Origin: Deltaproteobacteria bacterium
GTDB taxonomy: Bacteria > Desulfobacterota > Binatia > Binatales > Binataceae
NCBI GenBank assembly: GCA_027317185.1
Contig: DAHVFB010000001.1
Coordinates: 35,954-99,953 of the forward strand
Length of the DNA stretch: 64,000 nt
Direction of reading: 5' to 3'
Shown: in pieces, positions 24,630-42,214 of the stretch
Layout: every line of letters begins with the position of its first letter
Numbering within the stretch: the stretch's first letter is position 1
Translations under genes and position numbers: made by a program
The notes under the pieces: generated by a model
The model's input: only the letters and a program-made list of their open reading frames with translations
Databases searched by the model: none
Told to the model about the DNA's origin: nothing

Positions 24630-24688
24630 GCGCGATGGTTATCGATCGACAGCCCTTCACTCCCCAGTGCTTATTTCTCTCAGCGTCC

Positions 24689-24724
24689 GACCTCTCCCTG
24701 ACCCTCTCCTTGGACAAGGAGAGG
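24689..24724. repeat. REP-like palindromic repeat (same family as 3517-3630)
   Basis: cctctccctgaccctctccttggacaaggagaggg. Sits in the leader of the portal gene and is translated as PLPDPLLGQGEG in the track's over-extended ORF 24442..26130. Confidence 0.55.
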
Positions 24725-24750
24725 GCTTCGGAAGCTCACGGAGTAAGCGA

Positions 24751-26130
24751 ATGAAGCTATACGACGCGTATGGGCGAGCGGTAGACACCGGGCGCCTGCG
24801 TGAAGAACAGGCCGCGCCGACCTTCGCCGGCATCCGCAATATCTACTCCGTGATGCATCCGTCGGCCGGACTGACGCCCGAGCGCCTGTCCGCGATCTTG
24901 CGCGAAGCTGAGTCCGGCGATCCATATCTGTACCTCGAACTGGCCGAGGAGATGGAGGAAAAGGACCTGCACTACCTGGCCGTGCTCGCCACCCGCAAGC
25001 AATCGGTGGCCCAGCTCGACATGGTGATTCGACCGGCTTCGAGCGCGTCCGAGGACCTGAAGATCGCCGCGATGGTGCGCGAGGTGCTGCTCGACGGCAC
25101 GCTGGCGATGGAAGCGTTCCTGTTCGACAGCCTCGATGCGATCGGCAAGGGCTTTTCGGCGGTCGAAATAATCTGGGATACCGCCGGACGCACCTGGGTT
25201 CCACAGCGCCTGGTATGGCGCGATCCGCGCTGGTTTCTGTTCGATTGGATCAATGGCGAAACGCTGAGGGTACGCACGCTCGACGCGAGCGACCGCGAGT
25301 CGGAACTCGAGCCCGATCGCAGCAGCCATTTCCAGGGATCGGGCGCCGGTGCTCGATCGGGACTGCAACCGTTCACCGAACCCCTCCTGCCATACAAGTT
25401 CATCGTACATATCGCCAAGGCCAAGGCCGGACTGCCGATTCGGGGCGGGCTGGCGCGTGCGGCCGGCTGGTCGTACCTGTTCAAGAATTATGTGCTCAAG
25501 GATTGGGTCACCTACACCGAAGTTTTCGGCCAGCCTTTGCGGGTGGGCAAATATGGACCGGGCGCGACTGAGAACGACAAGCAGGTTTTACTCGATGCGG
25601 TGACCAATATAGGCAGCGACGCCGGTGCGATTATTCCGGACTCGATGGTGATCGAGTTCACGGAAGCGCGCCAGCAGGGCAGTATCGAGCTCTACGAAAA
25701 CTTCTGCGCCTACCTCGATCGCCAAGTCAGCAAGGCGGTGCTGGGACAGACGCTGACCACCGAGATGCCGCGCGAAGGTGGATCGCGCGCGGCCGCCCAG
25801 GTTCATCAGGCGGTGCGCCGCGACATCCTAAGCGCCGACGCCCGGCGGCTGGCCGCCACGATCACTCAGGATTTAATTAGACCGATTGTCGATCTGAATT
25901 TCGGGCCGCGCCCGCGCTATCCGCAATTCACGCTGGCCTTGCCCGAGGATCAGGACCTCAAGGTGTTTGCCGACATCATTGCAGAACTCGCCGACCGCGG
26001 GCTGCGCATCAGTCAGAAGACGGTGCTCGACAAGCTTGGATTGCCCGAGCCGCAGGCGGGAGAGCCGCTGCTGGAATCGATGCGCAATACGTCCGCCTCC
26101 GCCACCGCCGATCAGTCGCGCAAAGCATGA
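24751..26130 (+). CDS. Portal protein (Mu gp29 / DUF935 family)
   Basis: 459 aa from ATG 24751 (GGAG SD). N-terminal MKLYDAYGRAV...IRNIYSVMHPSAGLTPERLSAILREAESGD typical of Mu-type portals. Confidence 0.8.
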   Translation: MKLYDAYGRAVDTGRLREEQAAPTFAGIRNIYSVMHPSAGLTPERLSAILREAESGDPYLYLELAEEMEEKDLHYLAVLATRKQSVAQLDMVIRPASSASEDLKIAAMVREVLLDGTLAMEAFLFDSLDAIGKGFSAVEIIWDTAGRTWVPQRLVWRDPRWFLFDWINGETLRVRTLDASDRESELEPDRSSHFQGSGAGARSGLQPFTEPLLPYKFIVHIAKAKAGLPIRGGLARAAGWSYLFKNYVLKDWVTYTEVFGQPLRVGKYGPGATENDKQVLLDAVTNIGSDAGAIIPDSMVIEFTEARQQGSIELYENFCAYLDRQVSKAVLGQTLTTEMPREGGSRAAAQVHQAVRRDILSADARRLAATITQDLIRPIVDLNFGPRPRYPQFTLALPEDQDLKVFADIIAELADRGLRISQKTVLDKLGLPEPQAGEPLLESMRNTSASATADQSRKA

Positions 26131-26240: not shown

Positions 26241-27602
26241 CTAGATCGGCGGAACCGGCAGCGGATAGAACGTCACCCCTGCGCCGTTGGAACAACTGAA
26301 GGTGGTGCTGGTGCCTGCGCAGTTACCAGCCGGAAGCGCTGTACTTATACCGCCCGCGTTGCTCTTCAATTTGGAAAGGTCGACTCGCACGAGAAAACCA
26401 AAATCAGTCGCCAAGCCGAAGGTGCCCTTGCCACAAGCCTGAATGGCGGTCGAGTTAGGCTCAAACCTGGTAGACCATATGTTGCCGTTGGGGTCATTTG
26501 GCAGGTTGGCGGAAACCGAAGAAACATCGCTGCTTTGGATCTGAGCGACTTTGGTGTTCGGTAGTTGCATTAAACCAATGCCCGGCTCGTACTCCTCGGT
26601 TATGAAAGCCTGGTGCGATTTCCTGTCCACCGCCGCGCTCAAATCAGCGTTATTACTGTCGATCACGACCGGAATCGAGTTGGGCGGCGTTCCCGCTTCA
26701 GTGACCGTACACGACGATCCGGGATTCACCGTAGCGCCATTGAGATTCAGAACGATGATGGTTGAATCGCCTCCGATGTCGTCGGCGGCCAGCCAGACTC
26801 CGGTGGAAGGATCGACCGCCGCAGAATCCCAACCCGTGGAATTAGAGCCAGCAGCGAGGTTCGCGTCGGTAAGCAAGCAGCTTTCACTGCCGGTGACGTC
26901 GATCATCTCCATCGAGTCAGCCGTGGACGGCGGGTTGTCGTTGGCATTCAGGATCAGATTGGTGGTCGGATCGAATGCGAAATTGTCGCTCTGCGAACCG
27001 GTCTGAGAGGCAACGATCGGACCGAAAGTATTGGTGGTTAGATCGAAAGCTGTAAAGCCGGTGCAGGCGCCGGCCGACGCGCACCCGCTGCCATCGGTAG
27101 TGGCAACCAAAACCTGTTTATGCTTCGGATCGGCAACGATGCCACCGTTTGCCGCGTCCGCGCCCGTCGGAAAGGGAAACGGCGAGCCGGCAATCGGGTT
27201 ACCGGTGCTGTCGAAAATATCGAGGAATCCGTTATTCCCGTTCTGTCCGCTGGAGACCAATAAATGCCGACTGCGCGGGTCGAACGCCACCGCGATCGCA
27301 TAATCCGGATGTCCGATATCGAGCGTGGCGACGTGCGGCGACGCGGTATCTGGATTAACTCCCAGATTGAGCACCTCGACCTGACCATCGCCACTCGTGC
27401 CCAGAAAGTCCAAGGCCACGAAGGCGTAGTTCTTTTTGCAATCCACCGTGGTAAGTGCAGCGGTAGTGGATGCGTTACCGCCAGTTACCTTGGGCGTGAA
27501 CCTGTTATTCGAACTCGAATCACACCCCCCCATCGTGAGTACAAATATTAAGCTGGTAAACGCGAGCGCGCTTACCATAGTTGTCTTGAAATTCGGACGC
27601 AT
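26241..27602 (-). CDS. Secreted lipoprotein, beta-propeller-like repeat protein (cargo)
   Basis: 453 aa. Signal plus lipobox (LTMGGC). Repeated strand-like segments. Confidence 0.45.
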   Translation of the reverse strand: MRPNFKTTMVSALAFTSLIFVLTMGGCDSSSNNRFTPKVTGGNASTTAALTTVDCKKNYAFVALDFLGTSGDGQVEVLNLGVNPDTASPHVATLDIGHPDYAIAVAFDPRSRHLLVSSGQNGNNGFLDIFDSTGNPIAGSPFPFPTGADAANGGIVADPKHKQVLVATTDGSGCASAGACTGFTAFDLTTNTFGPIVASQTGSQSDNFAFDPTTNLILNANDNPPSTADSMEMIDVTGSESCLLTDANLAAGSNSTGWDSAAVDPSTGVWLAADDIGGDSTIIVLNLNGATVNPGSSCTVTEAGTPPNSIPVVIDSNNADLSAAVDRKSHQAFITEEYEPGIGLMQLPNTKVAQIQSSDVSSVSANLPNDPNGNIWSTRFEPNSTAIQACGKGTFGLATDFGFLVRVDLSKLKSNAGGISTALPAGNCAGTSTTFSCSNGAGVTFYPLPVPPI

Positions 27603-27766
27603 TGTTTCCCCTCCCTGAAGATAGATAAAGTCCTATTAACCGACTAAAGGATAGATTATCTGTAGCAAAGGCTGAAAATGAAGTCTACGCGTCTAAGCTA
27701 ATTATCCGCGAAAATTACGTCAAATAGGCGTGCGAAGCCCACTGCGGCAAAAGGTTTGATCGGGTA

Positions 27767-27859
27767 GGTCAGGGCAAGATGGGCGCGGTATGGCCGAAGC
27801 GCGCGTTGGTCATCGAAGAAATCAGGCTGAAACTATTGAAACCGGAACTGTAAAGCTCC
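27767..27859 (-). pseudogene. 3'-terminal fragment (last 29 codons plus stop) of a Kelch-repeat gene paralogous to 29144..30412
   Basis: About 95% nucleotide identity to 29141-29233. Reading frame preserved (ELYSSGFNSFSLISSMTNARFGHTAPILP*). No upstream ORF body. Confidence 0.5.
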
Positions 27860-27987
27860 ATCCGGCGGCCCTCAAACGCATGGCGTCGCGGTATGGCGCA
27901 AGCTCACACCTCGCCCCGGAGGGCTAAGGCGCCGGAGCTGCGCGTCTTCTCAGGCGCCGCTTAACGCCGGGACGGCAATCGGCAGCG

Positions 27988-28974
27988 CTACGGGGCGCGG
28001 TTGTTCACGTTGGTGCAGGGCCCTGCGCTGGTATCCTCAGCCAAATTAGCGCCCGAATTGTGCAGCGCCTTCACCAGCACGGCGTTGCCTGGACATATGA
28101 GCGAGACGCCGTCAGTGTGGTTGCCGGTGGCGGAGGTGGCGGTTATCAGGCCGTTTTCGTCCAACTCAACCCCGTTGTTTCCGTTCTTAGTGAATTTGCC
28201 GTTGGTGACGAGGTTGTCCTGGTTTGATTGGTTTGACGACGATGCGTAGACACCGTCGCCGACGTTGCCGGTCGCAGAGCAGCTGACGATCGAGTTGCAG
28301 CAGCCGGTCGCGTCGATGCCGTCGCCGCCATTGCCGGTGGCCTTGCTATTGGTCACGGTGCTACAACAACCACCCGCCACGATTCCGACGTCGCCGTTGT
28401 TGGTGGCTGTGGTATTGACGATCGTGAAGCAGCACCCGTTTGCATCGATGCCCCTACGCTGGTTGTTAATCGCTATCACATTGGCAAGGGTGCTGCAGCA
28501 CGCGACCTCGAGACCGTCGCCATCCCCGCTGCTCAACGACGTTACGGCCCCGGACAGCTTCACATGGTCGATGGTGGCGCTGTTCGTGGCTTTAAGCGCG
28601 AGATCTACGTTGAAGCCGGTGACGGTGCCGTTAAGAATCGCTATTTCGCTCAGGGTGTTGCCCCCGTCCGTGATGCCGAACATGCTGGTGCTGGAACTGG
28701 CGTTGCCGCTGATCGTGTGTCCACCCAGGTCGATCGACACGTTGTTGGCCGTAATCGTGATGCAGGTGGCCCCTGAGGCGGCCAGGTTCCCGGCCAATTT
28801 GTAGTTGCCCGCGCTGTTGATGGTCGTCCCGCAGGCGGATATCGGAGTAGACGCCGAAGGCGCGGCGGCGCTCGGGGGCGAGTCTAATAATCCCAGACCG
28901 AGCAACGCCGCAAACAGCACTAGCGCAACAAGTTTAACCACCCCGGCTCCCCGCTTTTGTGTTGATCGCGCCAT
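27988..28974 (-). CDS. Secreted right-handed parallel beta-helix repeat protein with paired-Cys (GCC) repeats (cargo)
   Basis: 328 aa. Signal peptide. Tandem ~22-aa repeats ATGNGGDGIDATGCCNSIV / NNGDVGIVAGGCCSTVT. Confidence 0.55.
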   Translation of the reverse strand: MARSTQKRGAGVVKLVALVLFAALLGLGLLDSPPSAAAPSASTPISACGTTINSAGNYKLAGNLAASGATCITITANNVSIDLGGHTISGNASSSTSMFGITDGGNTLSEIAILNGTVTGFNVDLALKATNSATIDHVKLSGAVTSLSSGDGDGLEVACCSTLANVIAINNQRRGIDANGCCFTIVNTTATNNGDVGIVAGGCCSTVTNSKATGNGGDGIDATGCCNSIVSCSATGNVGDGVYASSSNQSNQDNLVTNGKFTKNGNNGVELDENGLITATSATGNHTDGVSLICPGNAVLVKALHNSGANLAEDTSAGPCTNVNNRAP

Positions 28975-29143
28975 AAGATATCCCCCCTACTGCCCGCCAA
29001 GACGATATAAATCGAAACAGTTAGCTAAGCCCGGCGTCGGTTGTAGCAGAGCAGATAAGCTAAAGTACAGCGATCAAGGCAAAATTGAGCTGAAAGCGGG
29101 TCACGTATAGAGCGATCTTCAGGCAGGCGTGTTAAGGCAGGGG

Positions 29144-30412
29144 TCAGGGCAGGATGGTCGCGGTATGGCCGAAGCGCGCGTTGTTCATCGAAGAAATCAG
29201 GCTGAAACTGTTGAAACCGGAACTGTAAATCTCCGCCGTATTGACCGCGCTGGCGGCGTTCAAGCCGTTCAGGCCGTCCTGGCCACCGGTAATCAGCGCC
29301 ATCCCGGCCAGCGGACCGCTGCTGAACGCGGTCGCGGTGTGATAGCGCCGGAAATCCGTCATATTGCCGGTCGGCCCGAAGGCTCCGCCCGGATTGTAGA
29401 GTTCCGCGGTATAGGTCAGCGTGTTGCCGCTGGTCAGCCCGCCGCATAGCAGCACCAGACCGTTTTGCAGGATCGCGGAAGCGAACTGCATGCGGCTGAT
29501 GGTCATCAGGCCCGCCGCGGCGAACGAATTGGAGGCGGGATTGTACAACTCGGCGGTCGAGGTGATCACGCCCGCGTTATCCTGGCCACCAGCCAGCATC
29601 ACCTGCCCATTGAGCACGCCTCCGGAGAAAAAGATCGCGTTGTCGAAGAAGCGGCTGTCTTGCATCAGGTTTGTGATGTTCGTGAATTTCTGGGTGGTGG
29701 GATTATAGAGTTCGGCCTCGTTCTGCACGGCGGTCATCGCGGAGTTCGCGAAACCGCCCGCGATCAGCACCTGGCCGTTGGTGAGCAGCGTCGCGGTATG
29801 TGCCGCGCGCGGGAAATGCATCGGCGCGGGAGTGGCGGTGAATTTATCGGTAGCTGGATCGTACAATTCTGCACTGGCCAACGGATTTCCGTTCGCATCG
29901 ATGCCGCCGGTGATCAAAACCATCCCGTTATTGAGCAAGGTGGCAGTATGCAGCGCGCGAACGGAGGTCATGCTGGCGGCGATCGGATGGAACAACTGAT
30001 TTTTTTCGTTGAACAACTCCGCCGATTTCAGCGTAGTCCCGTTGCCGTCCTGCCCACCGGTAACCAGAATGGCGCCGCTGTGCAGGATGGTCGCGGTATG
30101 AAACGCGCGCGCCGCGTTGAGCGAATTAGTGGTGGTAAAGGTCTGGGTGGTTGGATTGAAGAGTTCGGCCTGCGCAACCGCCGCGCTGCTGGCATTGATA
30201 CCGCCGACGATGAGGACATCGCCTGAGAGCGGACCCGGAGTGGCAGTGCCGCTCGAGGTCGGCGTACCGCTGCTGCTACTGGTCACCTCGACCGCGCCGA
30301 AGCCGGGACCGCAGCCCTGCCCCACCATCGCCAGCCAGCCGAAGGTCACCAGCGCCGCGGCCGCCAACAGGATATTTCGTATCGTCGCTAGTAATCCGGC
30401 CGTGCGCTTCAT
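29144..30412 (-). CDS. Kelch-repeat lipoprotein (cargo)
   Basis: Start at MKRTAGLL (GGAGGGGG SD) with lipobox GQGCG. Five or more Kelch motifs (FHTATLL..G.VLITGG). The track N-extension is rejected. Confidence 0.7.
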   Translation of the reverse strand: MKRTAGLLATIRNILLAAAALVTFGWLAMVGQGCGPGFGAVEVTSSSSGTPTSSGTATPGPLSGDVLIVGGINASSAAVAQAELFNPTTQTFTTTNSLNAARAFHTATILHSGAILVTGGQDGNGTTLKSAELFNEKNQLFHPIAASMTSVRALHTATLLNNGMVLITGGIDANGNPLASAELYDPATDKFTATPAPMHFPRAAHTATLLTNGQVLIAGGFANSAMTAVQNEAELYNPTTQKFTNITNLMQDSRFFDNAIFFSGGVLNGQVMLAGGQDNAGVITSTAELYNPASNSFAAAGLMTISRMQFASAILQNGLVLLCGGLTSGNTLTYTAELYNPGGAFGPTGNMTDFRRYHTATAFSSGPLAGMALITGGQDGLNGLNAASAVNTAEIYSSGFNSFSLISSMNNARFGHTATILP

Positions 30413-30613
30413 GCCCCCTCCAATCTGCAAGCTCTCCACGAAGGCTACGGCTATAACATAGCCCAAAGGCCCACGAAACGAGTTGCAAAATAGTGAATTA
30501 TTCTGCGCTTTGAAAATGCAGTCGCCGGCGCGCCCCATCCTGCTCGTGCTGCTCGTGGCATACCGGCCCGGACTGCGGTAATTTGGAATCGCAGGTACGG
30601 GGATGGCAGTCAT

Positions 30614-31243
30614 ATGAGAGCTACATCGAATTCTTCGCCAGCGCGGATTGCGGCGCCCTGCAGCACGGAGCGAAAATCGATCGCGCTGACTTGGCCGATC
30701 GTCACGCTAGTGCTGACCGCGTTCCTGCCGCTGAGCGGATGCCTGGGAGCCTCGGGACTCGGCGGACTCGGAGGAATGAGCGGCCTCGGCGGCATGAATC
30801 CGTTCGGCGCCACCACCGCCACCCCGCAGGAACGTGCGATGAACGTCGAGCCGATGCTGACGGCGGCGGGTTTCCAAACACTCGCGCCGCAGAAGACAGA
30901 GCATCAGCAGCAGCTCGCCGCGCTGCCGGCGCTCACGATGAACACCTATACCACCGCGGAGGGTCAGCAGCGCTATTGGTATGCCGACCCCAGTTATTGC
31001 CATTGCATGTATGTCGGCGACGCCGGCGCTTATCAGCGCTATGAAACCCTGAAGTTGCAAAATCAGCAGCTCCAAAACGAGCAGCAGGCGCAACAGCAGC
31101 AGATGCAGATGCAACAGATGCAAATGCAGCAGATGCAGATGCAGCAAATGCAGATGATGGGACCGTTCGGATCGCCGATGGGCGGCTACGGCAGTCCGTT
31201 CGGCTTCGGCATGGGCGGCCCTGGCATGGGCTTCATGTTTTAA
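30614..31243 (+). CDS. Lipoprotein with C-terminal Gln/Met tandem repeat (cargo)
   Basis: Lipobox LSGC. QMQMQQMQMQQMQMQQMQMM encoded by a 9-nt tandem repeat at 31100-31158. Gly/Met-rich tail. Confidence 0.5.
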   Translation: MRATSNSSPARIAAPCSTERKSIALTWPIVTLVLTAFLPLSGCLGASGLGGLGGMSGLGGMNPFGATTATPQERAMNVEPMLTAAGFQTLAPQKTEHQQQLAALPALTMNTYTTAEGQQRYWYADPSYCHCMYVGDAGAYQRYETLKLQNQQLQNEQQAQQQQMQMQQMQMQQMQMQQMQMMGPFGSPMGGYGSPFGFGMGGPGMGFMF

Positions 31244-31353
31244 GTTTTCCTCGACCGCGATCGATTCAATCCAGACCGGGAATTGCCTGCTTCGCCTTTA
31301 TCCGCAAACACAATTTGCGCACCGCTGGTTGAGGCGGCGTTCCGCCTGCTAGT

Positions 31354-32172
31354 TTGCTGGCGATGAATTTCGCCGCGTTCCTTGCCGCCTGCCATGCGCA
31401 ATGGCCCGAGTTCGACGATCCGCGATCACTGTCCAAATCTTTGAAGCCGACCGACCGGCGCCTGGCCGATCTGCCGAAAAAGATTGAAGGGATGGCGACC
31501 GAGAACAAGCTGATGCTGCTCAATCTCGCAGTCGCGCAGCTTGGACCCGGCGAGGTTTACGTCGAGGTGGGATGCTACAAGGGCCTAAGCCTGGTTTCGG
31601 CGGCCGCGGGCAACGATCGCGCGTCGATTTATGCCTGCGATAATTTCTCGCAATTTCAATCCACCGCCGACCAACTGCGCCGCACGATTGCGTCGCATAC
31701 GCGGCCGGAGCAGGTGCATTTCTTCGATATGGAGTTTCGCGAGTTCCTGCGGATCGCGCCGTGGCGGCCGGCCCGTATCGGAGTTTATTTCTACGATGGC
31801 GGGCACTCGTTCGCCGATCAGTACGAGGGGCTTAAATATGCGCTGGGCGATCTCGCCGACGATGCATTAGTGATCGTGGATGACACCAACAAGCGCAACG
31901 TTCGTTCCGCGAATCATCTGTTCGCCGCCCTCGTTCCGGGTTTCGAGCCAATTCTCGACCTGCGCACGCCGCGCAACCATTCGCCGACCTGGTGGAACGG
32001 AGTCCAGGTATACCGCTATCGGCGGCCGGCCACGATTGCGGCGCTTGCCGGCGATCCGCTTGGCTATCGAATCCGGAAATTTCTGTGGGATGATGTTTTT
32101 CTGCGCTCGCGCCACGCCTACCGCGCGCGCCGCAGCGACCTGAAATTCTATCTGCGCCGCAAGTTCAAGTAG
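31354..32172 (+). CDS. Class I SAM-dependent methyltransferase (TylF/MycF-like, cargo)
   Basis: VYVEVGCYKG SAM motif, FYDGGHS, IVDDTN. Confidence 0.55.
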   Translation: MLAMNFAAFLAACHAQWPEFDDPRSLSKSLKPTDRRLADLPKKIEGMATENKLMLLNLAVAQLGPGEVYVEVGCYKGLSLVSAAAGNDRASIYACDNFSQFQSTADQLRRTIASHTRPEQVHFFDMEFREFLRIAPWRPARIGVYFYDGGHSFADQYEGLKYALGDLADDALVIVDDTNKRNVRSANHLFAALVPGFEPILDLRTPRNHSPTWWNGVQVYRYRRPATIAALAGDPLGYRIRKFLWDDVFLRSRHAYRARRSDLKFYLRRKFK

Positions 32173-32265
32173 GCAATGAGAGAGGGTGGCCCGGATCGTA
32201 AAGGACCTGTCGGAATTCGACCGCGTATAGAGATGGCAGTACGCGCGGCGTGCGACCCAGGTAAG

Positions 32266-33510
32266 ATGAAAATGGCAGCCAAAACGCTTTTCACCAACGC
32301 TAACCTGGTTCTGGACGGATTCACGGAACTCCAAAAATCGTTCGACGTGCTGGTCCACGATAACCGCATAATTGCGGTGTCGCAAACGCCGCTGGCTCAT
32401 GAAGATGCAAAAGTGATCGATATTCGCGGCAGGACGCTGATGCCGGGTCTTATCGATGCGCATGCGCATATAACGGGACTGTCGCTGAGCCCGAAAAACA
32501 TCGCCTACCCGGCCTCCGAAATTGCCATCGCCGCCGCCAATTATCTGCGCTGCAGCCTGATGGACGGTTTCACCTCGATCAGAGAAGCGGGCGGCGCCGA
32601 CCACGGCGTCGCCCGCCTGCTGGCCGAAGGGAAAATCATTGGGCCACGAATGTTCTACTCGGGGCGCGCGCTAACGCAGACCGGCGGAGGCGCAGACTTT
32701 CGCTCTCCCGATGAGGTCCTGGATCCGTGTGGTCACACCGGTCCGTTTACGGTGATGTCCGTGATCGCCGATGGAATTGACGAGGTGCGCAAGGCCGCGC
32801 GTGAAGAACTGCGCCGGGGCGCGGCGCAAATAAAAGTATTCGTCTCCGGTGGAGTGGTGTTTCCATCGGAAGCTCATCCAACTATTTACGAATACTCATT
32901 GGAAGAATTGCGCGCGATTGTGGAAGAGGCGAACGGCCGCGGCACCTACGTCATGGCCCACGTCTATACCGATGAGGGAGTTCGCCGGTGTTTAACCGCC
33001 GGCGTCCGATCTATCGAACATGCCAATTTCGTCAGCGAAGAAACGGTCGCCATGATGGCCCGGCACGGAGTCTACCTCGATCCGACCTTCATATCGCTCG
33101 TGCAACGAATCGAGTCAGCGGCCGAAACCGGGCTGCCAAACAATATCGTTGACAATTTGAAGACGACGGTGGCGAGGGGCCAGCAAGTCTACCGCTGGGC
33201 GAAGCGCTACCAGGTGCCAATCGCTTTCGGGACCGACCTATGGGGTCCAGAGGCGCAAACGTCGCAGCTCAGAGAATTTGAAATGCGAATGGAGCTCGAC
33301 GATGCGCCCGGTATCATTGCTTCAGCCACCCGCATCAATGCCGGGTTGCTAATGCAGAACGGCAACCTGGGAACCATTTCTCCCGGAGCCTACGCCGACC
33401 TCTTGGTCGTCGAAGGAGACCCCTTGAGCGACCTGAGGGTCATGACCGATCCTCAGAAGAATCTTAAGCTGATCATGAAGGACGGCGTAATCTACAAGAA
33501 CGAGATCTGA
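32266..33510 (+). CDS. Amidohydrolase-family metal-dependent hydrolase (cargo)
   Basis: GLIDAHAHI metal-binding motif, TIM-barrel amidohydrolase layout. Start at ATG 32266 (MKMAAK). Confidence 0.7.
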   Translation: MKMAAKTLFTNANLVLDGFTELQKSFDVLVHDNRIIAVSQTPLAHEDAKVIDIRGRTLMPGLIDAHAHITGLSLSPKNIAYPASEIAIAAANYLRCSLMDGFTSIREAGGADHGVARLLAEGKIIGPRMFYSGRALTQTGGGADFRSPDEVLDPCGHTGPFTVMSVIADGIDEVRKAAREELRRGAAQIKVFVSGGVVFPSEAHPTIYEYSLEELRAIVEEANGRGTYVMAHVYTDEGVRRCLTAGVRSIEHANFVSEETVAMMARHGVYLDPTFISLVQRIESAAETGLPNNIVDNLKTTVARGQQVYRWAKRYQVPIAFGTDLWGPEAQTSQLREFEMRMELDDAPGIIASATRINAGLLMQNGNLGTISPGAYADLLVVEGDPLSDLRVMTDPQKNLKLIMKDGVIYKNEI

Positions 33511-33948: not shown

Positions 33949-35061
33949 ATGACTAGTCAAGCAACCAACTCCAGAACGCCGGGCGCGGCCCCCCCCCACC
34001 GCGACGCCTGGCGCACGCGGGCCCGCGGTCAACTTCCGGTGATCTCCTCTGCCACCGGTTCGTGGTCCATGCCAACTCCCGAAGTTCCCCCATCGTGGGT
34101 CGAACTCCTCCCGATCGGCGAGTTTGCGGGACGCGATGGCCGCGGGCCATTCCGCGTAAACGACCCCGCGGCGGTGATTGCCGCGACTCGGGCCTTGCGG
34201 ATGGAGGCCGGTCTTCCGATCGATTACGACCACGCCACCGACCTCGCCGCGCCCACTGGCGGACCAGCCCCGGCCGCCGGATGGATTCGAGAACTCGAGG
34301 TCCGCGCGGGATCGATTTGGGGGCAGGTCGAATGGACTCCGAACGGCGCACAGGCGATCCGGGCGCATCAGTATCGTTATCTGTCGCCGGTATTTCAGTT
34401 TTCGCGCAGCGGCGAAGTGATGCGGCTGCTGCGAGCGGGATTGACTAATAATCCGAATCTTTACCTGACCGCGATCTGCGCGGCCAACAAAAAGGAACTC
34501 GACATGGAAATGCTGATTGATCAGTTGCGTGAAATCCTAGGTCTCGACGACAACGTTGATGCCGCCCAGATACTCGAGGCGGTCCGAAATCTGGCTGCCG
34601 CACCCAACCTCCCTGAGGATGCAGCGCCCCTCAACGAGGGCGCTGGCGACGATGACGATGATGCCGAAAGCCCCGATCCGGCCCGCTTCGTGGCAATGTC
34701 GCACTTTCAGCGCGCGGTCACCGAACTGAACCATCTGCGCGCCGAGCGTGGACAAGAACGCGCCGAGCTAACCGTTGACGACGCGATTCGAGCCGGCAAA
34801 CTGGTGCCGGCGCAGCGCGCCTGGGCCGTTTCATATTGCCAGGCGGATTTCGGCGGCTTCAAGGAATTCATCGCACGTCAGCCCGCGATGCTTCCGGCCG
34901 CGCAGCACTTTGCTTCCGCTTCGGCGCCGCGCGCGAAGTCTGAAAGCCTGACGCCGGGCGAGCTCGCGATCTGCACTCAACTTGGCCTGCGTCCCGAAAC
35001 CTTTATCCAGCGCCGAGCAGCTCGCGGCCAGTTGCTGAAACTCAACAAGTTTTTCGATTAG
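33949..35061 (+). CDS. Mu gpI-like prohead protease/scaffold protein
   Basis: ELLPIGEFAGRDGRGPF...PIDYDHATDL...PAPAAGWIRELEVR...YRYLSPVF matches the FluMu/Mu I protein family. Acidic linker plus C-terminal scaffold-like region. True start may be internal (about 34069). Confidence 0.65.
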   Translation: MTSQATNSRTPGAAPPHRDAWRTRARGQLPVISSATGSWSMPTPEVPPSWVELLPIGEFAGRDGRGPFRVNDPAAVIAATRALRMEAGLPIDYDHATDLAAPTGGPAPAAGWIRELEVRAGSIWGQVEWTPNGAQAIRAHQYRYLSPVFQFSRSGEVMRLLRAGLTNNPNLYLTAICAANKKELDMEMLIDQLREILGLDDNVDAAQILEAVRNLAAAPNLPEDAAPLNEGAGDDDDDAESPDPARFVAMSHFQRAVTELNHLRAERGQERAELTVDDAIRAGKLVPAQRAWAVSYCQADFGGFKEFIARQPAMLPAAQHFASASAPRAKSESLTPGELAICTQLGLRPETFIQRRAARGQLLKLNKFFD

Positions 35062-35221
35062 CTAGTCGGCCCAACCAGCTTCAATCGCCAGCCCGCTTCG
35101 ATCGGCCCGTTTCGACGGAACAAGCCATAAGCACGAAGCTCACTTCGATACTGGCGGTTGAAAAACCTCAACCATAGATCCGCCCCGGATCGCTCAAGCA
35201 CCCGCGAAAGGAGAAAGACTG

Positions 35222-35917
35222 ATGGCGGCTTTGACCAGCGCTCGCAATACTCCCGAAATGGCCGATTTTGGCCGCATCCAGGTTTACCCTGTTGAAGCCA
35301 ACACGGTCGTTTATCTCGGCTCGATGGTGGCGCTTAATGGCGCCGGCAACGCCGTGCCCGCCAGTTCGACCCCGGGATTGAAGATTGTGGGGCGCGCCGA
35401 ACGCGTCCACAACGGCATCCCGGGCCAGAACGCCGTCAACACCGGCGGCGTGGCCGGTGGGATATCGATCGTATGCCGCCGCGGCGTTTTCATGTACGCG
35501 GTCAATGACAGCTCGATCGCGCAGGCACAGATCGGATCGCCCGCCTTCGCGGTCGATGACAACTCGGTTTCGGCCAGCGACGGTAGCGCCAGTTCGGTGG
35601 TCGCGGCCACCGCGTTCACCTTTCCAGTCGCCGGGACGCCTCAACTGATCGTCCTGAATCATGAGTACGTCTCCAAGGTGGTCGTCACCAGCGATCCGGC
35701 CGGCACCACTTACGTCGAGGGCACTGACTATGTAGTCGATTACCAGTCGGGTCTGGTGATGCGCACGGCCGCCAGCGCGATCGCGGCCGGCGCCCAGGTG
35801 CTGATCTCGTTTGACTGGGGCGCGCCGTCGCGCAGCATCGCGGGACAGATTGTCAATCTCGATCCGAGCGGCGAAGTGTGGATCGACTTCTGGCATCAGT
35901 CCACGCTCGCGATCTGA
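35222..35917 (+). CDS. Head decoration-like protein (DUF2190-like N-terminus) with a C-terminal shared phage surface domain
   Basis: Between gpI and gpT. The C-terminal about 65 aa (VVVTSDPAGTTYVEGTDYVVDYQSGLV...VLISFDWG) is shared with the sheath and the gp37-like protein. Confidence 0.4.
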   Translation: MAALTSARNTPEMADFGRIQVYPVEANTVVYLGSMVALNGAGNAVPASSTPGLKIVGRAERVHNGIPGQNAVNTGGVAGGISIVCRRGVFMYAVNDSSIAQAQIGSPAFAVDDNSVSASDGSASSVVAATAFTFPVAGTPQLIVLNHEYVSKVVVTSDPAGTTYVEGTDYVVDYQSGLVMRTAASAIAAGAQVLISFDWGAPSRSIAGQIVNLDPSGEVWIDFWHQSTLAI

Positions 35918-35946
35918 CCATCCGCTAACACACCAGGGACACCACA

Positions 35947-36897
35947 ATGGAAATATCTCAGGCAAATCTCACTTCGTTGTTCACCGGCTTCGACGTGGTA
36001 TTTCAGCGCGGCTTCGACAAGCCACCCTCTTACTACGACCAGATCGCGACCGTGGTGCGATCGACCAGCCGCCAGACCACCTATCCGTGGCTCGGACGCA
36101 CCACCAGCTTTCGCGAATGGCTTGGCGAGCGCGTGGTGCAAGCGCTCGAAGCCCATACTTACACCATCGTCAATCGCAATTTCGAGGATACCGTCGGAAT
36201 TGATCGCAACGACATCGAAGACGACAACTACGGCGTCTACGAACCGATTATCGAGCAGCTCGGCTGGGACACCAAGGTCCATCCCGACATGCTGCTGTTC
36301 CAGATGATCAAACAGGCGGTTGCGACGCCCGCCAACGTCGTCGGTTACGATGGCCAGCCTTTTTTCTCGGCGAGTCATCCGGTGGGTCCGATGGGCGACC
36401 CGGTCCGCGACAGCGTGGTGGCCAATATCAACTCCAGCGGCACCGGTGCGTACTGGTTCCTGATCGACGCCTCGCGCGCTATCCGTCCGTTCATTTTTCA
36501 GCTTCGCCGCGAGTATGCGGTGACACGGATGAACACGCTCTCCGATGAGATGGTCTTCAACCGGCGCGAGTTCCGTTACGGCGTTGACGGCCGCGCGAAC
36601 ACCGGCGTTGGGCTGTGGCAACTGGCGTACGCCAGCAACCAGGACTTGAGTAATCCAGCCAACTACGGGGCCGCGCGCGCGGCAATGCGATCGATCAAAA
36701 CCGACGGCGGCCAGCCGTTCGGCACCTTGGCGAGCCGCAAGGGCGTTTACTTGGTGGTCCCGCCGGCGCTCGAAGAGGTGGCGCGTCAGCTACTCAACTC
36801 CGAGTTCATGGCCGGCGCCGGCGCAAGTTCCGCAGTCGCTACGACTAACATCTGGCGCAACAGTGCCGACCTAATCGTCAGCGAGTACCTCGCCTAG
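35947..36897 (+). CDS. Major head subunit, Mu gpT family
   Basis: 316 aa. MEISQANLTSLFTGFDVVFQ..., FFSASHPVG and GAYWFLIDASR are typical of Mu-like gpT. Confidence 0.8.
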   Translation: MEISQANLTSLFTGFDVVFQRGFDKPPSYYDQIATVVRSTSRQTTYPWLGRTTSFREWLGERVVQALEAHTYTIVNRNFEDTVGIDRNDIEDDNYGVYEPIIEQLGWDTKVHPDMLLFQMIKQAVATPANVVGYDGQPFFSASHPVGPMGDPVRDSVVANINSSGTGAYWFLIDASRAIRPFIFQLRREYAVTRMNTLSDEMVFNRREFRYGVDGRANTGVGLWQLAYASNQDLSNPANYGAARAAMRSIKTDGGQPFGTLASRKGVYLVVPPALEEVARQLLNSEFMAGAGASSAVATTNIWRNSADLIVSEYLA

Positions 36898-36916
36898 CTT
36901 TAACGGTGAGATAAAC

Positions 36917-37351
36917 ATGAGCTACGCCGCCGCACAGGACCTGATCGCCCGCTACTCGAATCGCGACCTGGTCCAGTTGACCAACGACGATCCCACCGTC
37001 ACCACGATTAACACCGATGTGCTGCAGCAGGCGCTTGATGACGGTTCGGCGGAAATCGACGGCTACCTCGATGGGCGGTTTGCGCTGCCACTGGCGCAAC
37101 CGCCCGCCATTTTGGCGCGGCTGGCCTGCGATATCGCGATGTATCGGCTGCAATCGCTGCGGCCGCTGCACGACCTGGCCGATGCGCGCAAGCGCTACGA
37201 GGATGCGGTCGCGTTCTTGATGGAAGTGGCCCGCGGAACGGTAACGCTGGGCTTGTCGGCGGTAGGCACGGAACCGCCATCCGCACCCGACGCAGCCGTG
37301 GTCGAGGGTCCATCGCGGGTTTTCGATCGCAACAAGCTCCGCGGCTTCTGA
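36917..37351 (+). CDS. Mu gp36-like protein (DUF1320)
   Basis: DLIARYSNRDLVQLTNDD...IDGYLDGRFALPL...LACDIAMYRL pattern. Confidence 0.6.
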   Translation: MSYAAAQDLIARYSNRDLVQLTNDDPTVTTINTDVLQQALDDGSAEIDGYLDGRFALPLAQPPAILARLACDIAMYRLQSLRPLHDLADARKRYEDAVAFLMEVARGTVTLGLSAVGTEPPSAPDAAVVEGPSRVFDRNKLRGF

Positions 37352-37390
37352 GTATCACTTACTACTAACCCGTAACGCTGAGCGAGTTAT

Positions 37391-38176
37391 TTGATGGCAG
37401 CCGTATTGGATATTCCGTGGACCGGACAAAGCTTCAGTCCCCCGTCGCCACTCGATATCGGAACTATCGAAGCGGCGATCGTGGCGCAGCTCCGTTCCAC
37501 GATAACCACGATCGAGGTGGTCCAATTTCCCGACCGTGCCGAAGCCTACCGCCTGACCCATCGAATCGGCGCGGCGCTGGTGGCTTACCGCGCGTCGAGC
37601 TACGGCGAACTCATCGATACGGCGGCAGTCGTGCAGGCGCGAACGCTCGAATTCGAGGTGCGCCTGATAGTGCGAGATCTCGGCTGGAGCTACGGCGGCC
37701 CCGGATCGGGCGGCGGACCCGGCGCCTATGCATTGCTTGAAGCCGTGCGCGCCGCATTGACCGGCTTTCAAATTCCGGGATGCCGCAAGGCTTATCCGCT
37801 CAAGGAGCGATTCGTCGAGCGCGATACTCGGGGCGGGGTCTGGATTTATTCGATCAGTTTCGCAATCGAGACCGTGGCCATGGAAGTTTCGATCCTCGAC
37901 CAGTTCCCGTTGTTTATCAGCGGAACCACAAACAATGGAAACGGGCAGACGCTTACGTCAGTCGGCGCATTTCAGGGAACCTTCGACACCAGTGGAGTGC
38001 TTCAGTTGCCGGTGGTCAATCTCTCGAACGTAATGGTTTTCGATTCGAGCGGCCGAAGCTACCTCAATGGAACCGACTTCCAGGTCGATCCAGCCAGCGG
38101 CACGCTCACCGTGATCGCCGGCGGCGGACTGGCCGCGGGAGAAACTGTGAGCGTCGCCTGCGGATACCACAGCTAG
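37391..38176 (+). CDS. Mu gp37-like protein (DUF1834) with a C-terminal shared surface domain
   Basis: N-terminus IEAAIVAQL...ALVAYRAS gp37-like. C-terminus VLQLPVVNLSNVMVFDSSGRSYLNGTDFQVDPASGTLTVIAGGGLAAGETV is related to the 35222 and sheath modules. Confidence 0.5.
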   Translation: MMAAVLDIPWTGQSFSPPSPLDIGTIEAAIVAQLRSTITTIEVVQFPDRAEAYRLTHRIGAALVAYRASSYGELIDTAAVVQARTLEFEVRLIVRDLGWSYGGPGSGGGPGAYALLEAVRAALTGFQIPGCRKAYPLKERFVERDTRGGVWIYSISFAIETVAMEVSILDQFPLFISGTTNNGNGQTLTSVGAFQGTFDTSGVLQLPVVNLSNVMVFDSSGRSYLNGTDFQVDPASGTLTVIAGGGLAAGETVSVACGYHS

Positions 38177-38243
38177 TTCAGCCCGGGCGATGCGGCGGCG
38201 GCGCCGATCTTCCGGCGCATAATCCACCACAGGAGTGACATCA

Positions 38244-39746
38244 ATGCCAGCGAGCTTTATGCACGGAGTCGAAGTAACGGAGGTCAACAGCGGCCCGCGG
38301 CCGGTAACCGTCGTCAAATCGGCGGTAATCGGGCTGGTCGGCACCGCCCCGATCTGGAGCATCAGCAATGCCCCCGCGGTCAACACGCCGGTATTGGTAA
38401 GCTCGGCGCCCGACGCGGCGCAATTCGGTCCTTTGATCAAGGGCTATTCCATTCCATATGCCCTGGCCGCTATTCAGTCCCAGGGCGCGGGCCAGGCGAT
38501 CGTCATCAATGTGTTCGATCCCACCATTCACACCAGCGCGATAGCCGCGACGCCGTTCACCTTCAGCACTACCGGCACCAGCGCCGGCACCATCAAGCTT
38601 GGCCACATGGGCGTGTCGCAGGTGGTGGTGACCAGCGATCCGGCGGGCACCACTTATACGCTGGCGAGCGACTACACGCTCGACGCGGTCAATGGCATCG
38701 TCACTTTGGTCGCGGGCGGAAGGATCGCCGCGGGCGCAACGGTACTGGTGTCGTTCGACTATGCCGATCCGACCAAGGTCAGCGATGCCAACGTAATTGG
38801 CGCCTTCGCCAGCGGCGCATATAGCGGTTTGCAGGCGCTGAAGATTACTTACGGCACGATGGGCTTCTTCGCGAGAATTTTGATCGCGCCGGGCTTTTCT
38901 CAGAATCCCGACGTCGCCAGCGCGCTTACCTCGATGGCGGACACGCTGCGCGCGATGGCGCTGGTGGACAGCGCGCCGGGCACCTCCGCCGCGACCGCGA
39001 TCGCCAACCGGAATGTCACCGGCAATGCGTTCGACACCAGCTCGAACCGTGCGATCCTGTGCTACCCACAGGAATTGTTTGTCGACAACGGTATCGATCC
39101 GACCACCGGACTGACGGTCAATGCCAATTCGATCGCGCCGCTGTCGCAGTATGTGGCGGGTGCGATGGCAGCCAAAGACCTAGCTAAGGGTTATTGGTGG
39201 TCGCCGTCCAACACCCAGTTCCAGGGCGCGCTCGGACCCGACGTGCCGCTTTATGCTTCAATCATCGATCCCGCCTCCGACGTCAACAATCTCAACGCCG
39301 AAGGTATTCTTACTGTGTTCAACAGCTTCGGCACCGGCTTGCGGGTATGGGGTAATCGATCGGCCGCCTATCCGACGAGCACCGCACCCGACAACTTCAT
39401 CAGCGTGCGCCGTACGATGGACGTGATCGAGGACTCGGTCGAATTGGCGATGCTGCAGTTCATCGATCAGCCAATATCGAACGCCCTGATCGCGTCGATT
39501 CTGGCGAGCGTCAATGGATTTATCCGAACCTTGATTCAGCGCGGCGCGTTGGTCGGTGGCAGCGCCAGTTACAATCCGGCGGAAAATCCTGCAGCTCAGC
39601 TTTCGGCCGGACAACTCGTATTTGATATCGACGTGATGCCGCCGCCGCCGGCCGAGCGCATCAGCTTCAACGTCACGATCGATACCACCCTGTTGCAGCA
39701 GCTCGGCCAGAGCAACGCCCTGAGCACCGGGACAATCCCGGCCTGA
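38244..39746 (+). CDS. Contractile tail sheath protein (Mu gpL-like) with inserted surface domain
   Basis: MPASFMHGVEVTEV...VIGLVGTAP matches the Mu L N-terminus (YHHGVQVLEIN..IVGMVCTA). C-terminal GLRVWGNRS sheath core. Start ATG 38244 (AGGAG SD). Confidence 0.85.
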   Translation: MPASFMHGVEVTEVNSGPRPVTVVKSAVIGLVGTAPIWSISNAPAVNTPVLVSSAPDAAQFGPLIKGYSIPYALAAIQSQGAGQAIVINVFDPTIHTSAIAATPFTFSTTGTSAGTIKLGHMGVSQVVVTSDPAGTTYTLASDYTLDAVNGIVTLVAGGRIAAGATVLVSFDYADPTKVSDANVIGAFASGAYSGLQALKITYGTMGFFARILIAPGFSQNPDVASALTSMADTLRAMALVDSAPGTSAATAIANRNVTGNAFDTSSNRAILCYPQELFVDNGIDPTTGLTVNANSIAPLSQYVAGAMAAKDLAKGYWWSPSNTQFQGALGPDVPLYASIIDPASDVNNLNAEGILTVFNSFGTGLRVWGNRSAAYPTSTAPDNFISVRRTMDVIEDSVELAMLQFIDQPISNALIASILASVNGFIRTLIQRGALVGGSASYNPAENPAAQLSAGQLVFDIDVMPPPPAERISFNVTIDTTLLQQLGQSNALSTGTIPA

Positions 39747-39768
39747 ATTCCTGATTAAGGAGACCGCG

Positions 39769-40287
39769 ATGGAACTGTCAGTGAACCGGATCACCAACGC
39801 CAACATTTACGTGGACGGCATCGGATTGCTCGGCCGCGCCGAAGAAATTCAGGTCGCCCAGCCTCGCCACCGGATGATCGATCACAAAGGTCTCGGCATG
39901 GCCGGCGTGGCCGAGTTCTGGGCCGGCGTCGACAAGCTCGAGTCGCGCATCAAGTGGTCATCTATTTATCCCGAAGCCCAACTGCTGGTGAACAACCCTT
40001 TCAGCGCTCACTCCTTCCAGGTAATGGGCAGTATCGATCAATACACCAGCCAGGGGCGATCCGCCGAACTGCCGCTGGTCTATCTGATGACCGGGGTGTT
40101 CAAGGATGCCGGCGCGTTCAATTTCAAGCATCAGGAGAACGTCGACGCGCTGTCGCTTATCTCGGTGTATCACACCGAGTTGTACGTCGCGGGCGTGCAG
40201 ATTTTTCTTTATGACGTGATGGCCAATCTTTATGTGGTTGGCGGCGTCGATCAGCTCGCGAGCTTCCGATCGAATCTCGGTGAATAA
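39769..40287 (+). CDS. Tail tube protein (Mu gpM / P2 FII family)
   Basis: NANIYVDGIGLLGRAEEIQV...GMAGVAEF pattern of FII-type tube proteins. Confidence 0.75.
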   Translation: MELSVNRITNANIYVDGIGLLGRAEEIQVAQPRHRMIDHKGLGMAGVAEFWAGVDKLESRIKWSSIYPEAQLLVNNPFSAHSFQVMGSIDQYTSQGRSAELPLVYLMTGVFKDAGAFNFKHQENVDALSLISVYHTELYVAGVQIFLYDVMANLYVVGGVDQLASFRSNLGE

Positions 40288-40791: not shown

Positions 40792-41076
40792 ATGATCACA
40801 CGCTTGTATATTGGAAACCTGAATTTTGCGATTACCGAGGCCGGGCTGCAGGAGATGGTCGGCCGGATGACCAGCCTGCCACCAGCGCATATCGACCGCG
40901 CCGAGGTCATTCGCGATCGTGATACCGGCCGCTCACGCGGCTTCGGATTTGTCGAGTTGGCCAATTCCGAAGCCGCCCAGCGTGCGATGAGCGAGCTCGA
41001 TGGAATCGAAGTGATGGGCCGAACCCTGAAGGTTCAGATCGCGAAGCCGCGTTCGCCGATGCGCTCGCGTGCTTGA
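40792..41076 (+). CDS. RRM-fold RNA-binding protein (RNP-1 RGFGFVEL, RNP-2 LYIGNL)
   Basis: 94 aa. Canonical RNP-2 (RLYIGNLNF) and RNP-1 (SRGFGFVEL) motifs. Lies inside the tail operon. Confidence 0.7.
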   Translation: MITRLYIGNLNFAITEAGLQEMVGRMTSLPPAHIDRAEVIRDRDTGRSRGFGFVELANSEAAQRAMSELDGIEVMGRTLKVQIAKPRSPMRSRA

Positions 41077-41080
41077 TGGC

Positions 41081-42214
41081 ATGAAACCGCGCGCAAAAAT
41101 TCCCTCGATGATCGAAACCATGCGGACTGTGCATCGCCGGTTGGCAGTGAAGCGATCACTAACCTCCGACTTTTCGATCCGATCGCTTGTGCGCAACAGC
41201 CAGGCGATCGCCGGCGAACATGGCGGCGACTCCGCGAACGAAACAACTGGCGCGCGCGGAAGCGACTCTCGAGTGGAATACGATTCGCGATCGCCTGCTG
41301 AATCAACTTCGCGACCGACGGGACAGCTTCGAATTCGCGATGCGATCACGAGTCAAAGTCCCTGGGGGCCGCTCGCATCGGATCGCCAAACCCGCGCCTC
41401 GGCGCGCCGCGACTATCTGACGAACCGAGAGCCTGATCAGACGCCCTCGCCAAAGCGTCGCAGTCTGACTCAGACGACGGATCGGCGTTACTCTCCATCT
41501 GCTCGCCTTTCAACGGACGGCTTTTCCGGCAGGGCTTATGATCCGAATTCCAAATTCATATCGGTTGGCGGCCGCCCGACGGCGAAACACTCAGCCTCGC
41601 GGCCGGATGGCGGAAACAGCTCGCTTGAGCTAGCGATCGCGAAGGTTACGCGGCTCGGCACACAACTGGATCGATCACACAGTGCGAAGCTCGCCGCGCC
41701 GACCGACTCGCGTCATCGCGCTGCCCCTGCTCGATCGAAATCAACCGCTTCGCCTAAGCGCGCTGAGGGCGCGCGTGATTCCAATCAGCAATTGAACGCA
41801 TCGCCACGAATTCGGTCGCTGTCATCCATAAAAGTGGGCGCATCGAGCGTGTCTCCACCGACCGGCGGCGAAAGCCGGCACGCTTTTACCAGCCTGGGCG
41901 GACTGATCTCAGGCGCCGGCGCTTCGGCGCGCGCTCACAACCATTACGGCAGGCCCGAACGTCTCAGGCCAGATCGCATTTTCAATCCGCCGCTGCCGGC
42001 GAACAGCAAAGGCGCCACGATTTCATCGAAGCCGCGAGCGGCCGCGGCAAGCGATCCCACCGTCGTGATCAATTCTTCGCCAACTATCGTGATCCACGCC
42101 GGGACAGCCGGCGATCTCGAGCGGCAGGTGCTCGAAGCGTTGCGGAACTATCGCAGCGAGCTGTACGACGAATGGCGTCGCGAAGTGGCGCGGCGCGAAA
42201 GAACGGAATTCTAG
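41081..42214 (+). CDS. Ser/Arg/Thr/Pro-rich low-complexity protein occupying the tape-measure gene position
   Basis: 378-codon ORF from ATG 41081 (or GTG 41069), overlapping the RRM stop. Only long ORF in the region. Composition disordered. C-terminal 45 aa more globular (DLERQVLEALRNYRSELYDEWRREVARR). Confidence 0.45.
   Translation: MKPRAKIPSMIETMRTVHRRLAVKRSLTSDFSIRSLVRNSQAIAGEHGGDSANETTGARGSDSRVEYDSRSPAESTSRPTGQLRIRDAITSQSPWGPLASDRQTRASARRDYLTNREPDQTPSPKRRSLTQTTDRRYSPSARLSTDGFSGRAYDPNSKFISVGGRPTAKHSASRPDGGNSSLELAIAKVTRLGTQLDRSHSAKLAAPTDSRHRAAPARSKSTASPKRAEGARDSNQQLNASPRIRSLSSIKVGASSVSPPTGGESRHAFTSLGGLISGAGASARAHNHYGRPERLRPDRIFNPPLPANSKGATISSKPRAAAASDPTVVINSSPTIVIHAGTAGDLERQVLEALRNYRSELYDEWRREVARRERTEF

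Follow-up and report, generated by a model that had tools for sequence, protein, structure and literature searches.

Immunoglobulin-like (Ig-like) domains of phages were described by Fraser et al. (2006), as quoted in a review of tail sheaths (PMC9230969), as promiscuous, horizontally exchanged and dispensable, and the same quotation carries their hypothesis that such domains bind weakly to cell-surface carbohydrate; the study is cited as Fraser, Yu, Maxwell and Davidson 2006, J Mol Biol 359:496, in PMC7385642. The sheath review further states that extra domains of sheath proteins are generally located at a distance from the tube and frequently have an Ig-like fold (PMC9230969). In the Pseudomonas siphophage JBD30, residues 88-175 of the tail tube protein gp44 form a decoration domain with an immunoglobulin-like fold, which protrudes tangentially from the tube, and gp42 forms the stopper hexamer (PMC11445458). 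In phage Bas63, Ig-like domains are found on the capsid Hex-Dec protein, the collar and the baseplate spacer (PMC12609058). Here, we describe a predicted Ig-like domain, referred to as the module, that occurs in three virion proteins encoded on a stretch of 64,000 nucleotides (the window) of contig DAHVFB010000001.1 (assembly GCA_027317185.1, positions 35,954 to 99,953) from a Deltaproteobacteria bacterium of the Binataceae. The host element is a Mu/BcepMu-like contractile-tailed prophage, whose late gene cluster is located on the + strand and continues with more tail and baseplate genes up to about 49 kb. The three proteins are p231, a probable capsid decoration protein, p261, a neck protein of the Gp37 family, and the tail sheath (Table 1).

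Table 1. Module copies, their host genes and flanking virion genes of the prophage, in window coordinates.
Feature	Position	Strand	Details
p231, probable capsid decoration protein, hosts module copy 1	35222..35917	+	231 aa; PHROG 1731
p261, Gp37-family neck protein, hosts module copy 2	37391..38176	+	261 aa; Pfam Gp37 PF09646
Tail sheath, hosts module copy 3	38235..39746	+	503 aa from GTG at 38235; Phage_sheath_1
Module copy 1	35591..35830	+	p231 residues ~124-203, loop insertion; HMM envelope 129-200
Module copy 2	37952..38173	+	p261 residues ~188-261, C-terminal extension; HMM envelope 193-260
Module copy 3	38526..38786	+	sheath residues ~98-184, between N-terminal segment and conserved core; HMM envelope 105-177
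Mu gpI-type protease/scaffold	33949..35061	+	Pfam Mu-like_Pro, E 3.3e-72
Mu gpT-type major capsid protein	35947..36897	+	Pfam Mu-like_gpT, E 1.6e-98
Gp36-type head-tail adaptor	36917..37351	+	Pfam Phage_Mu_Gp36, E 7.6e-35
Tail tube protein	39769..40287	+	Pfam Phage_tube, E 9.2e-33

By sequence comparison, the three segments were confirmed to be copies of one homologous domain in three different virion proteins. In BLASTP searches with composition-based statistics, p231 and the sheath aligned over 82 residues (52% identity, E 1.4e-20), p231 and p261 over 79 residues (35% identity, E 1.3e-7), and p261 and the sheath over 67 residues (36% identity, E 3.9e-8). Smith-Waterman scores of the three module pairs were 197, 99 and 108, corresponding to z-scores of 27, 15.5 and 13.5 against a null of 2,000 composition-preserving shuffles (means 26-31, standard deviation 5-6), none of which attained the observed scores. 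Comparison of each module with the remaining, non-module sequence of these proteins gave scores of only 21-34. All three copies were also matched by the PHROG 807 profile, which does not derive from these sequences: p231 with an E-value of 4.9e-10 (profile positions 95-174), the p261 module with 5.8e-7 (positions 85-170) and the sheath module with 8.3e-11 (positions 102-176). A six-frame scan of the window with a hidden Markov model (HMM) of the module recovered exactly three copies and none further at E<=1, and all of them are in-frame and do without a programmed frameshift. An earlier sequence-only reading of this DNA had proposed a common module of roughly 65 residues in these three genes, which it would have given up if the alignments lost significance after composition correction. 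The segments are indeed present in the genes that it named and the significance persists; the length, however, has to be corrected to about 70-80 residues.

The way in which the module is joined to its host differs among the three proteins, and for each of them close or clear homologues exist that do without it, showing, at the level of alignments, that the module is dispensable. In p231 the module is a loop insertion and not an appendage, because the last about 27 residues rejoin the core and, in the AlphaFold2 (AF2) model, contribute two further core strands after the module. The mean predicted local distance difference test (pLDDT) score of this model is 79, with values of 82-93 in the module. 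The evolutionary comparison covered the window and 80 related IMG/VR loci; p231 homologues of 160 residues from 17 related loci have a short loop (consensus ...DRxxGAxVQQYA...) at the exact module position, and p231 aligns to them with a clean gap of about 75 columns. With regard to the host protein itself, p231 has a 100% identical counterpart, the hypothetical protein IVW54_09360, in a Candidatus Binataceae metagenome-assembled genome (MAG), and residues 1-128 of p231 match PHROG 1731, annotated as 'virion structural protein' (E 1.9e-25). The p231 gene has the Mu-type protease/scaffold gene on one side and the gene for the gpT major capsid protein on the other. The first 12 residues of p231 are almost invariant although disorder is predicted for them, as would be expected of a capsid-binding arm. 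With the two-domain model, Foldseek returned only weak and mixed matches, among them capsid auxiliary proteins from FCWL1, XM1, Sf11 and Pam3 (probability 0.4-0.9, E>=0.04), and the p231 family profile had no significant match among PDB sequences. Since the PHROG label is generic and the fold matches are weak, a role of p231 in capsid decoration is only probable.

In p261, the module forms the end of the protein. Residues 30-174 match Pfam Gp37 (PF09646, E 1.3e-30), a match to Phage_tail_terminator was also obtained (E 4.5e-7), and p261 belongs to PHROG 209 (E 1.5e-21), which also comprises JBD30 gp42 (E 1.6e-40) and BcepMu gp37 (E 1.7e-42). By these profile matches p261 is a homologue of the JBD30 stopper and of BcepMu gp37; direct BLASTP comparison to JBD30 gp42 gave no match, and a search of p261 against PDB sequences gave no significant one. 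Residues 29-179 of p261 align to residues 10-149 of the 154-residue BcepMu gp37 (BLASTP, 36% identity, E 2.7e-26). As BcepMu gp37 stops where the linker starts, residues 180-261, consisting of linker and module, represent a C-terminal extension. Thus, the sequence-only statement that the module is appended to head and neck proteins holds for the neck protein, whereas in the putative head protein p231 it is inserted into a loop.

The sheath protein was assigned by Pfam (Phage_sheath_1, E 9e-18; Phage_sheath_1C, E 3e-11) and by PHROG 23 (E 2.4e-101), and it aligns to the R2 pyocin sheath with an E-value of 2.5e-36. Its homologues begin with MPASF, the equivalent start codon here being the ATG at 38244, which is therefore likelier than the GTG at 38235 from which the residues are numbered here. 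Both this GTG and the TTG at 37391 of p261 (compared with 37394) are probably a few codons too early. The module-less sheaths P2 FI (396 residues) and R2 pyocin PA0622 (386 residues, PDB 3J9Q) have homologous N-terminal segments and cores: sheath residues 6-97 align to P2 FI residues 2-90 and residues 185-490 to 103-389, so that 87 residues replace 12, and the alignment to the R2 pyocin sheath breaks at the same site. These alignments support an insertion of the module relative to module-less sheaths, and the check for homologous sheaths without the insert, suggested by the sequence-only reading, thus found two of them. That reading had compared the sheath with Mu L. Mu L has no module HMM match and gave no BLASTP alignment to the sheath at E<=0.01; being too divergent for BLASTP, it is a poor comparator, and the module-less homologues that are informative are P2 FI and the sheath of the R2 pyocin.

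The AF2 model of the isolated sheath module reached a pLDDT of 92.1 and a predicted template-modelling score (pTM) of 0.81 and comprises six main strands. Its top Foldseek match was chain 8rk3_f, JBD30 gp44 (probability 1.00, 25% identity). The module is therefore predicted to be a small Ig-like beta-sandwich, in agreement with one of the two folds suggested earlier, as its best solved match is the Ig-like decoration domain of gp44. For the other suggestion, a carbohydrate-binding module (CBM), fold comparison gave noise-level Foldseek matches only; the p231 model, for example, matched CBM46 at E 0.87. JBD30 gp44 is a full-length member of PHROG 807 (E 2.5e-92) and corresponds one-to-one to the 256-position profile. 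The modules align to positions ~85-176 of this profile, that is, to the decoration-domain part of gp44, and the module and the decoration domain at the centre of the siphophage major tail proteins in PHROG 807 are one and the same domain. The second-best structural analogue, with only 13-17% identity, was found in the tail tube protein of YSD1/Chi, namely its domain 2 (PDB 6XGR, 8VHX). In addition, residues 690-743 of SprA, the type 9 secretion translocon (PDB 6H3I/8GL6), showed a weak resemblance to the module (sequence E 0.1), with the common motif G-x-DY-x-VD-x-x-x-G and a Foldseek TM score of 0.52-0.57 at 29-30% identity over 56-62 residues; this segment may be a distant non-phage relative of the module fold or a chance match.

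When the modules by themselves were compared with Pfam at E<=10, no meaningful family was recovered (DUF2460, DUF4781 and DUF1344, with E-values of 0.02-0.13). However, precomputed database annotation assigns PF27730 'UCP028589' (PF27730.1) to the module-only fragments P0002, P0004 and P0007, to complete-module sheath and Gp37 fragments, and to p231 and most of its homologues, the match on the window's own protein being marked 'weak'. A literature search for 'UCP028589' found nothing. At E<=1e-3, an exhaustive search with the module profile yielded 1,424 cluster representatives; these proteins range from 73 to 4,211 residues and have up to 13 matched stretches each. Among 112 representatives scanned with Pfam, the host contexts were sheath (25), Gp37 (13), tail terminator (5), baseplate-wedge fibre-network (BW3TFN, 4), Gp36 (3), tail-collar fibre (2) and Baseplate_J (1), and 103 of the 112 were matched by PHROG 807. 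Two giant proteins with multiple module copies bear Baseplate_J domains. Among cultured phages, the sheaths of BcepMu, phiE255, KP12 and PhiKM carry the module at the same site. A search of genome contigs with p261 recovered only five loci, from Binataceae or 'delta proteobacterium' MAGs. The arrangement in three proteins is thus an ordinary example of a widespread and mobile domain family among phage structural proteins. The idea of an unusual virion-wide decoration strategy is not upheld in view of the number of representatives, the many kinds of structural protein concerned, the BcepMu sheath and the multi-Ig virion of Bas63.

Taken together, we propose that one Ig-like accessory domain was grafted separately into three structural proteins of the prophage, namely into a surface loop of p231, onto the C-terminus of the neck stopper (Gp37) and into the tail sheath at its canonical insertion site. 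Each copy would project from the outer surface of the virion, with many copies on head and tail and presumably about six at the neck. The copies would be non-essential accessories, most likely mediating adhesion of low affinity to polysaccharides or other polymers at the host surface or in its surroundings, and could thereby raise the host encounter rate. As a whole, an accessory domain that is grafted, exposed at the surface and most likely adhesive is the best explanation, which we hold with moderate confidence. External exposure is suggested by the insertion sites and the analogues, because the equivalent JBD30 domain protrudes from the tube and the p231 module is located in a loop of the core domain. 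With respect to function, weak multivalent adhesion to host-surface or matrix polymers was judged, following the hypothesis of Fraser et al. (2006), to be the most likely role, with bracing as the main alternative.

Several points weigh against this proposal. The match of the module HMM to JBD30 gp44 is marginal, covering some 25 residues (E 4e-4 in a search of five proteins), and the module profile found no significant chain among PDB sequences, with SprA alone appearing, at E 0.1 and 0.79, across the searches with the module, p231 and p261. Even at E<=10, no module was matched by Big_1, Big_2, Big_3, I-set, fn3 or a CBM family of Pfam. Capsid decoration was assigned to p231 from gene position, the PHROG label and fold matches at E>=0.04. 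Surface exposure in the sheath and in p231 is read from insertion sites and analogues, and adhesive binding is a proposal for every member of the family. Moreover, the role reported for domain 2 of YSD1 is to brace and stabilise the hexameric ring and not adhesion (PMC7385642).

The latter finding bears directly on the alternative that the modules are structural braces, which would bind nothing external but stabilise the particle by subunit-subunit contacts between neighbouring sheath subunits, between the stopper and the top sheath ring, and between decoration protein and capsid. Such bracing is also brought up in the sheath review with regard to additional domains of sheaths (PMC9230969), and the stopper copy would be situated directly above the top sheath ring, whose subunits bear the same module. 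Against bracing, homologues that assemble normally do without the module (the 160-residue p231 relatives, BcepMu gp37, P2 FI and the pyocin sheath), and the equivalent JBD30 domain protrudes tangentially from the tube. Furthermore, the modules were shown to diverge faster than the cores in all three proteins, with mean pairwise identities of 0.74 against 0.80, 0.50 against 0.65 and 0.68 against 0.78, indicating relaxed or diversifying evolution. Copy number varies as well: sheaths in related loci have one module (505-513 residues) or two (~584 residues), which is more in keeping with an optional feature of the surface than with a fitted interface, and p231 homologues have none (160 residues) or one (~232 residues). 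Every locus with a complete Gp37 gene has one module in this protein. We therefore regard bracing as possible, but as rather unlikely to be the role of the modules.

In addition to weak adhesion by separately grafted copies, a more far-reaching version of the adhesive role was considered, in which the three copies are a coordinated design. One adhesive module on head, neck and tail, perhaps in several hundred copies, would provide a multivalent low-affinity coat that holds the virion to the envelope or the extracellular matrix of the uncultured Binataceae host, and its dose would be tuned in the course of evolution by gain and loss of copies. Gain and loss were indeed seen, as p231 occurs with or without the module and sheaths have one or two nested copies; coordination of this kind nevertheless appears doubtful to us. 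In the sheaths with two modules, found among loci L058-L078 (e.g., L062 6484-8238 and L058 6352-8106), one module is nested inside the other. Some 21 residues from the start of module A (HMM positions 4-24) are followed by a linker, a complete module B (HMM 1-69) and the rest of module A (HMM 29-69), and the added ~75 residues match one module.

It was further considered that the three copies stem from recent duplication or gene conversion within the genome, so that their sharing would be a local accident. The module of p231 in the window is equally near to sheath modules (0.55-0.57 identity) and to other p231 modules (0.58), and the p231 and sheath genes have a common stretch of 45 nucleotides with 87% DNA identity (35668-35712 and 38612-38656), possibly representing a short conversion tract between the two copies. 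In general, however, the modules group by host protein, with identities of 0.51-0.70 within and 0.31-0.40 between classes, and copies from the same locus are no closer to each other (0.38) than copies from different loci (0.38-0.40). From this grouping it follows that the copies are long-resident paralogues that do not undergo ongoing homogenisation. In a neighbour-joining tree all 15 distinct p231 modules formed one pure clade. In addition, the Gp37 copy is only about 35% identical to the other two, and the sheath copy is already present in BcepMu. Recent intragenomic duplication was thus rejected as a general explanation on the grounds of the host-protein grouping and the pure p231 clade, and we consider it improbable for the three copies. 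Finally, that the similarity is a compositional artefact of segments rich in Ala, Gly, Thr and Val in a genome of about 60% GC is ruled out with near certainty by the composition-corrected BLASTP values, the shuffle test and the match of all three modules to the independent profile PHROG 807, and is further contradicted by the clean indel boundaries relative to module-less homologues and by a confidently predicted fold.

Two Gp37 homologues are interrupted by single in-frame stop codons, one within the module (L047 3274-4110, ...NLQVQLP*GNVF...) and one within the core (L018 1200-2160, ...CRKM*PVREK...). The stops are sequencing errors or decay, and a programmed frameshift or readthrough that would add the module to Gp37 was rejected, as both splits are such single stops.

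Elsewhere in the cluster, a gene for an RNA-binding protein of the RRM_1 family (40792-41076, + strand; Pfam E 1e-15) is located between the tail assembly chaperone gene and the putative tape measure gene, and it overlaps the next open reading frame (ORF) by 8 nucleotides. At least 12 related viral loci have a homologue (38-51% identity) in the corresponding place. The following ORF at the tape measure position (41069-42214, + strand) encodes only 381 residues rich in Ser, Arg and Ala, has no Pfam match and is conserved in relatives only in its C-terminal ~50-70 residues (41-54% identity). Upstream of the module genes, positions 26241-33510 contain about 7.3 kb of genes that are not phage-like, between the Mu-type portal (24442-26130) and the protease/scaffold gene starting at 33949. 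This region encodes two unknown ORFs (- strand), a Kelch-repeat protein, a 209-residue ORF, a methyltransferase and an amidohydrolase. In L058, L062, L071 and L076 the portal is directly followed by the protease, and the order methyltransferase-amidohydrolase-protease recurs in the independent sample L083; the region could be a cargo insertion or part of a decaying prophage. A comparison of 24442-26130 and 33949-40287 with JBD30 (L091) showed that the head and neck genes are common to the two phages: the major capsid protein is 41% identical to JBD30 gp38, the adaptor is 33% identical to gp41, and the stopper belongs to the same PHROG. The tail genes, unlike these, are of the BcepMu/P2 contractile type. 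No homologue of Mu gp30 (F) or G was seen among the genes of the window that were examined.

The locus is of value mainly as a set of comparisons. One accessory domain is joined in three topologies within one phage, that is, by loop insertion, by C-terminal extension and at the sheath insertion site, and a module-less homologue is available as a control for each of the three host proteins. This marks tolerant insertion sites in the decoration protein, stopper and sheath of Mu/BcepMu-type phages, for which phage display and engineering are a possible use. For the uncharacterised Pfam family PF27730 (UCP028589), the gp44 decoration domain of JBD30 now provides a link to a solved structure. The new aspects are modest and consist of three copies that are demonstrably one sequence family, the module-less controls and the structural link of PF27730; the current picture of phage Ig-like domains is unchanged.

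Among the described systems, the Burkholderia phage BcepMu, together with related Bcepmuvirus, phiE255 and KP12, is close in its sheath. BcepMu gp39 is 47% identical over the full length, and its module (residues 99-165, HMM E 1.1e-17) is placed as in the sheath described here. BcepMu differs in that its gp37 (154 residues) has no module, and in that a 110-residue DUF2190 protein is encoded after the capsid gene, whereas here the 231-residue protein is encoded before it. In JBD30 (PDB 8RK3), the domain is found on one protein only, and this host protein, gp44, forms a non-contractile tail tube, whereas the hosts described here are a sheath, a stopper and a probable capsid protein. The JBD30 stopper gp42 has 157 residues and no module HMM match, and is similar in size to the module-less BcepMu gp37. 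The promiscuous Ig-like domains of tailed phages, such as the C-terminal Big_2 domain of lambda gpV and those of T4 Hoc and T5 pb6, are likewise small beta-sandwiches on diverse structural proteins. In comparison with these, the module described here belongs to no classical Pfam Ig family, and its three copies within one prophage are demonstrably members of one sequence family.

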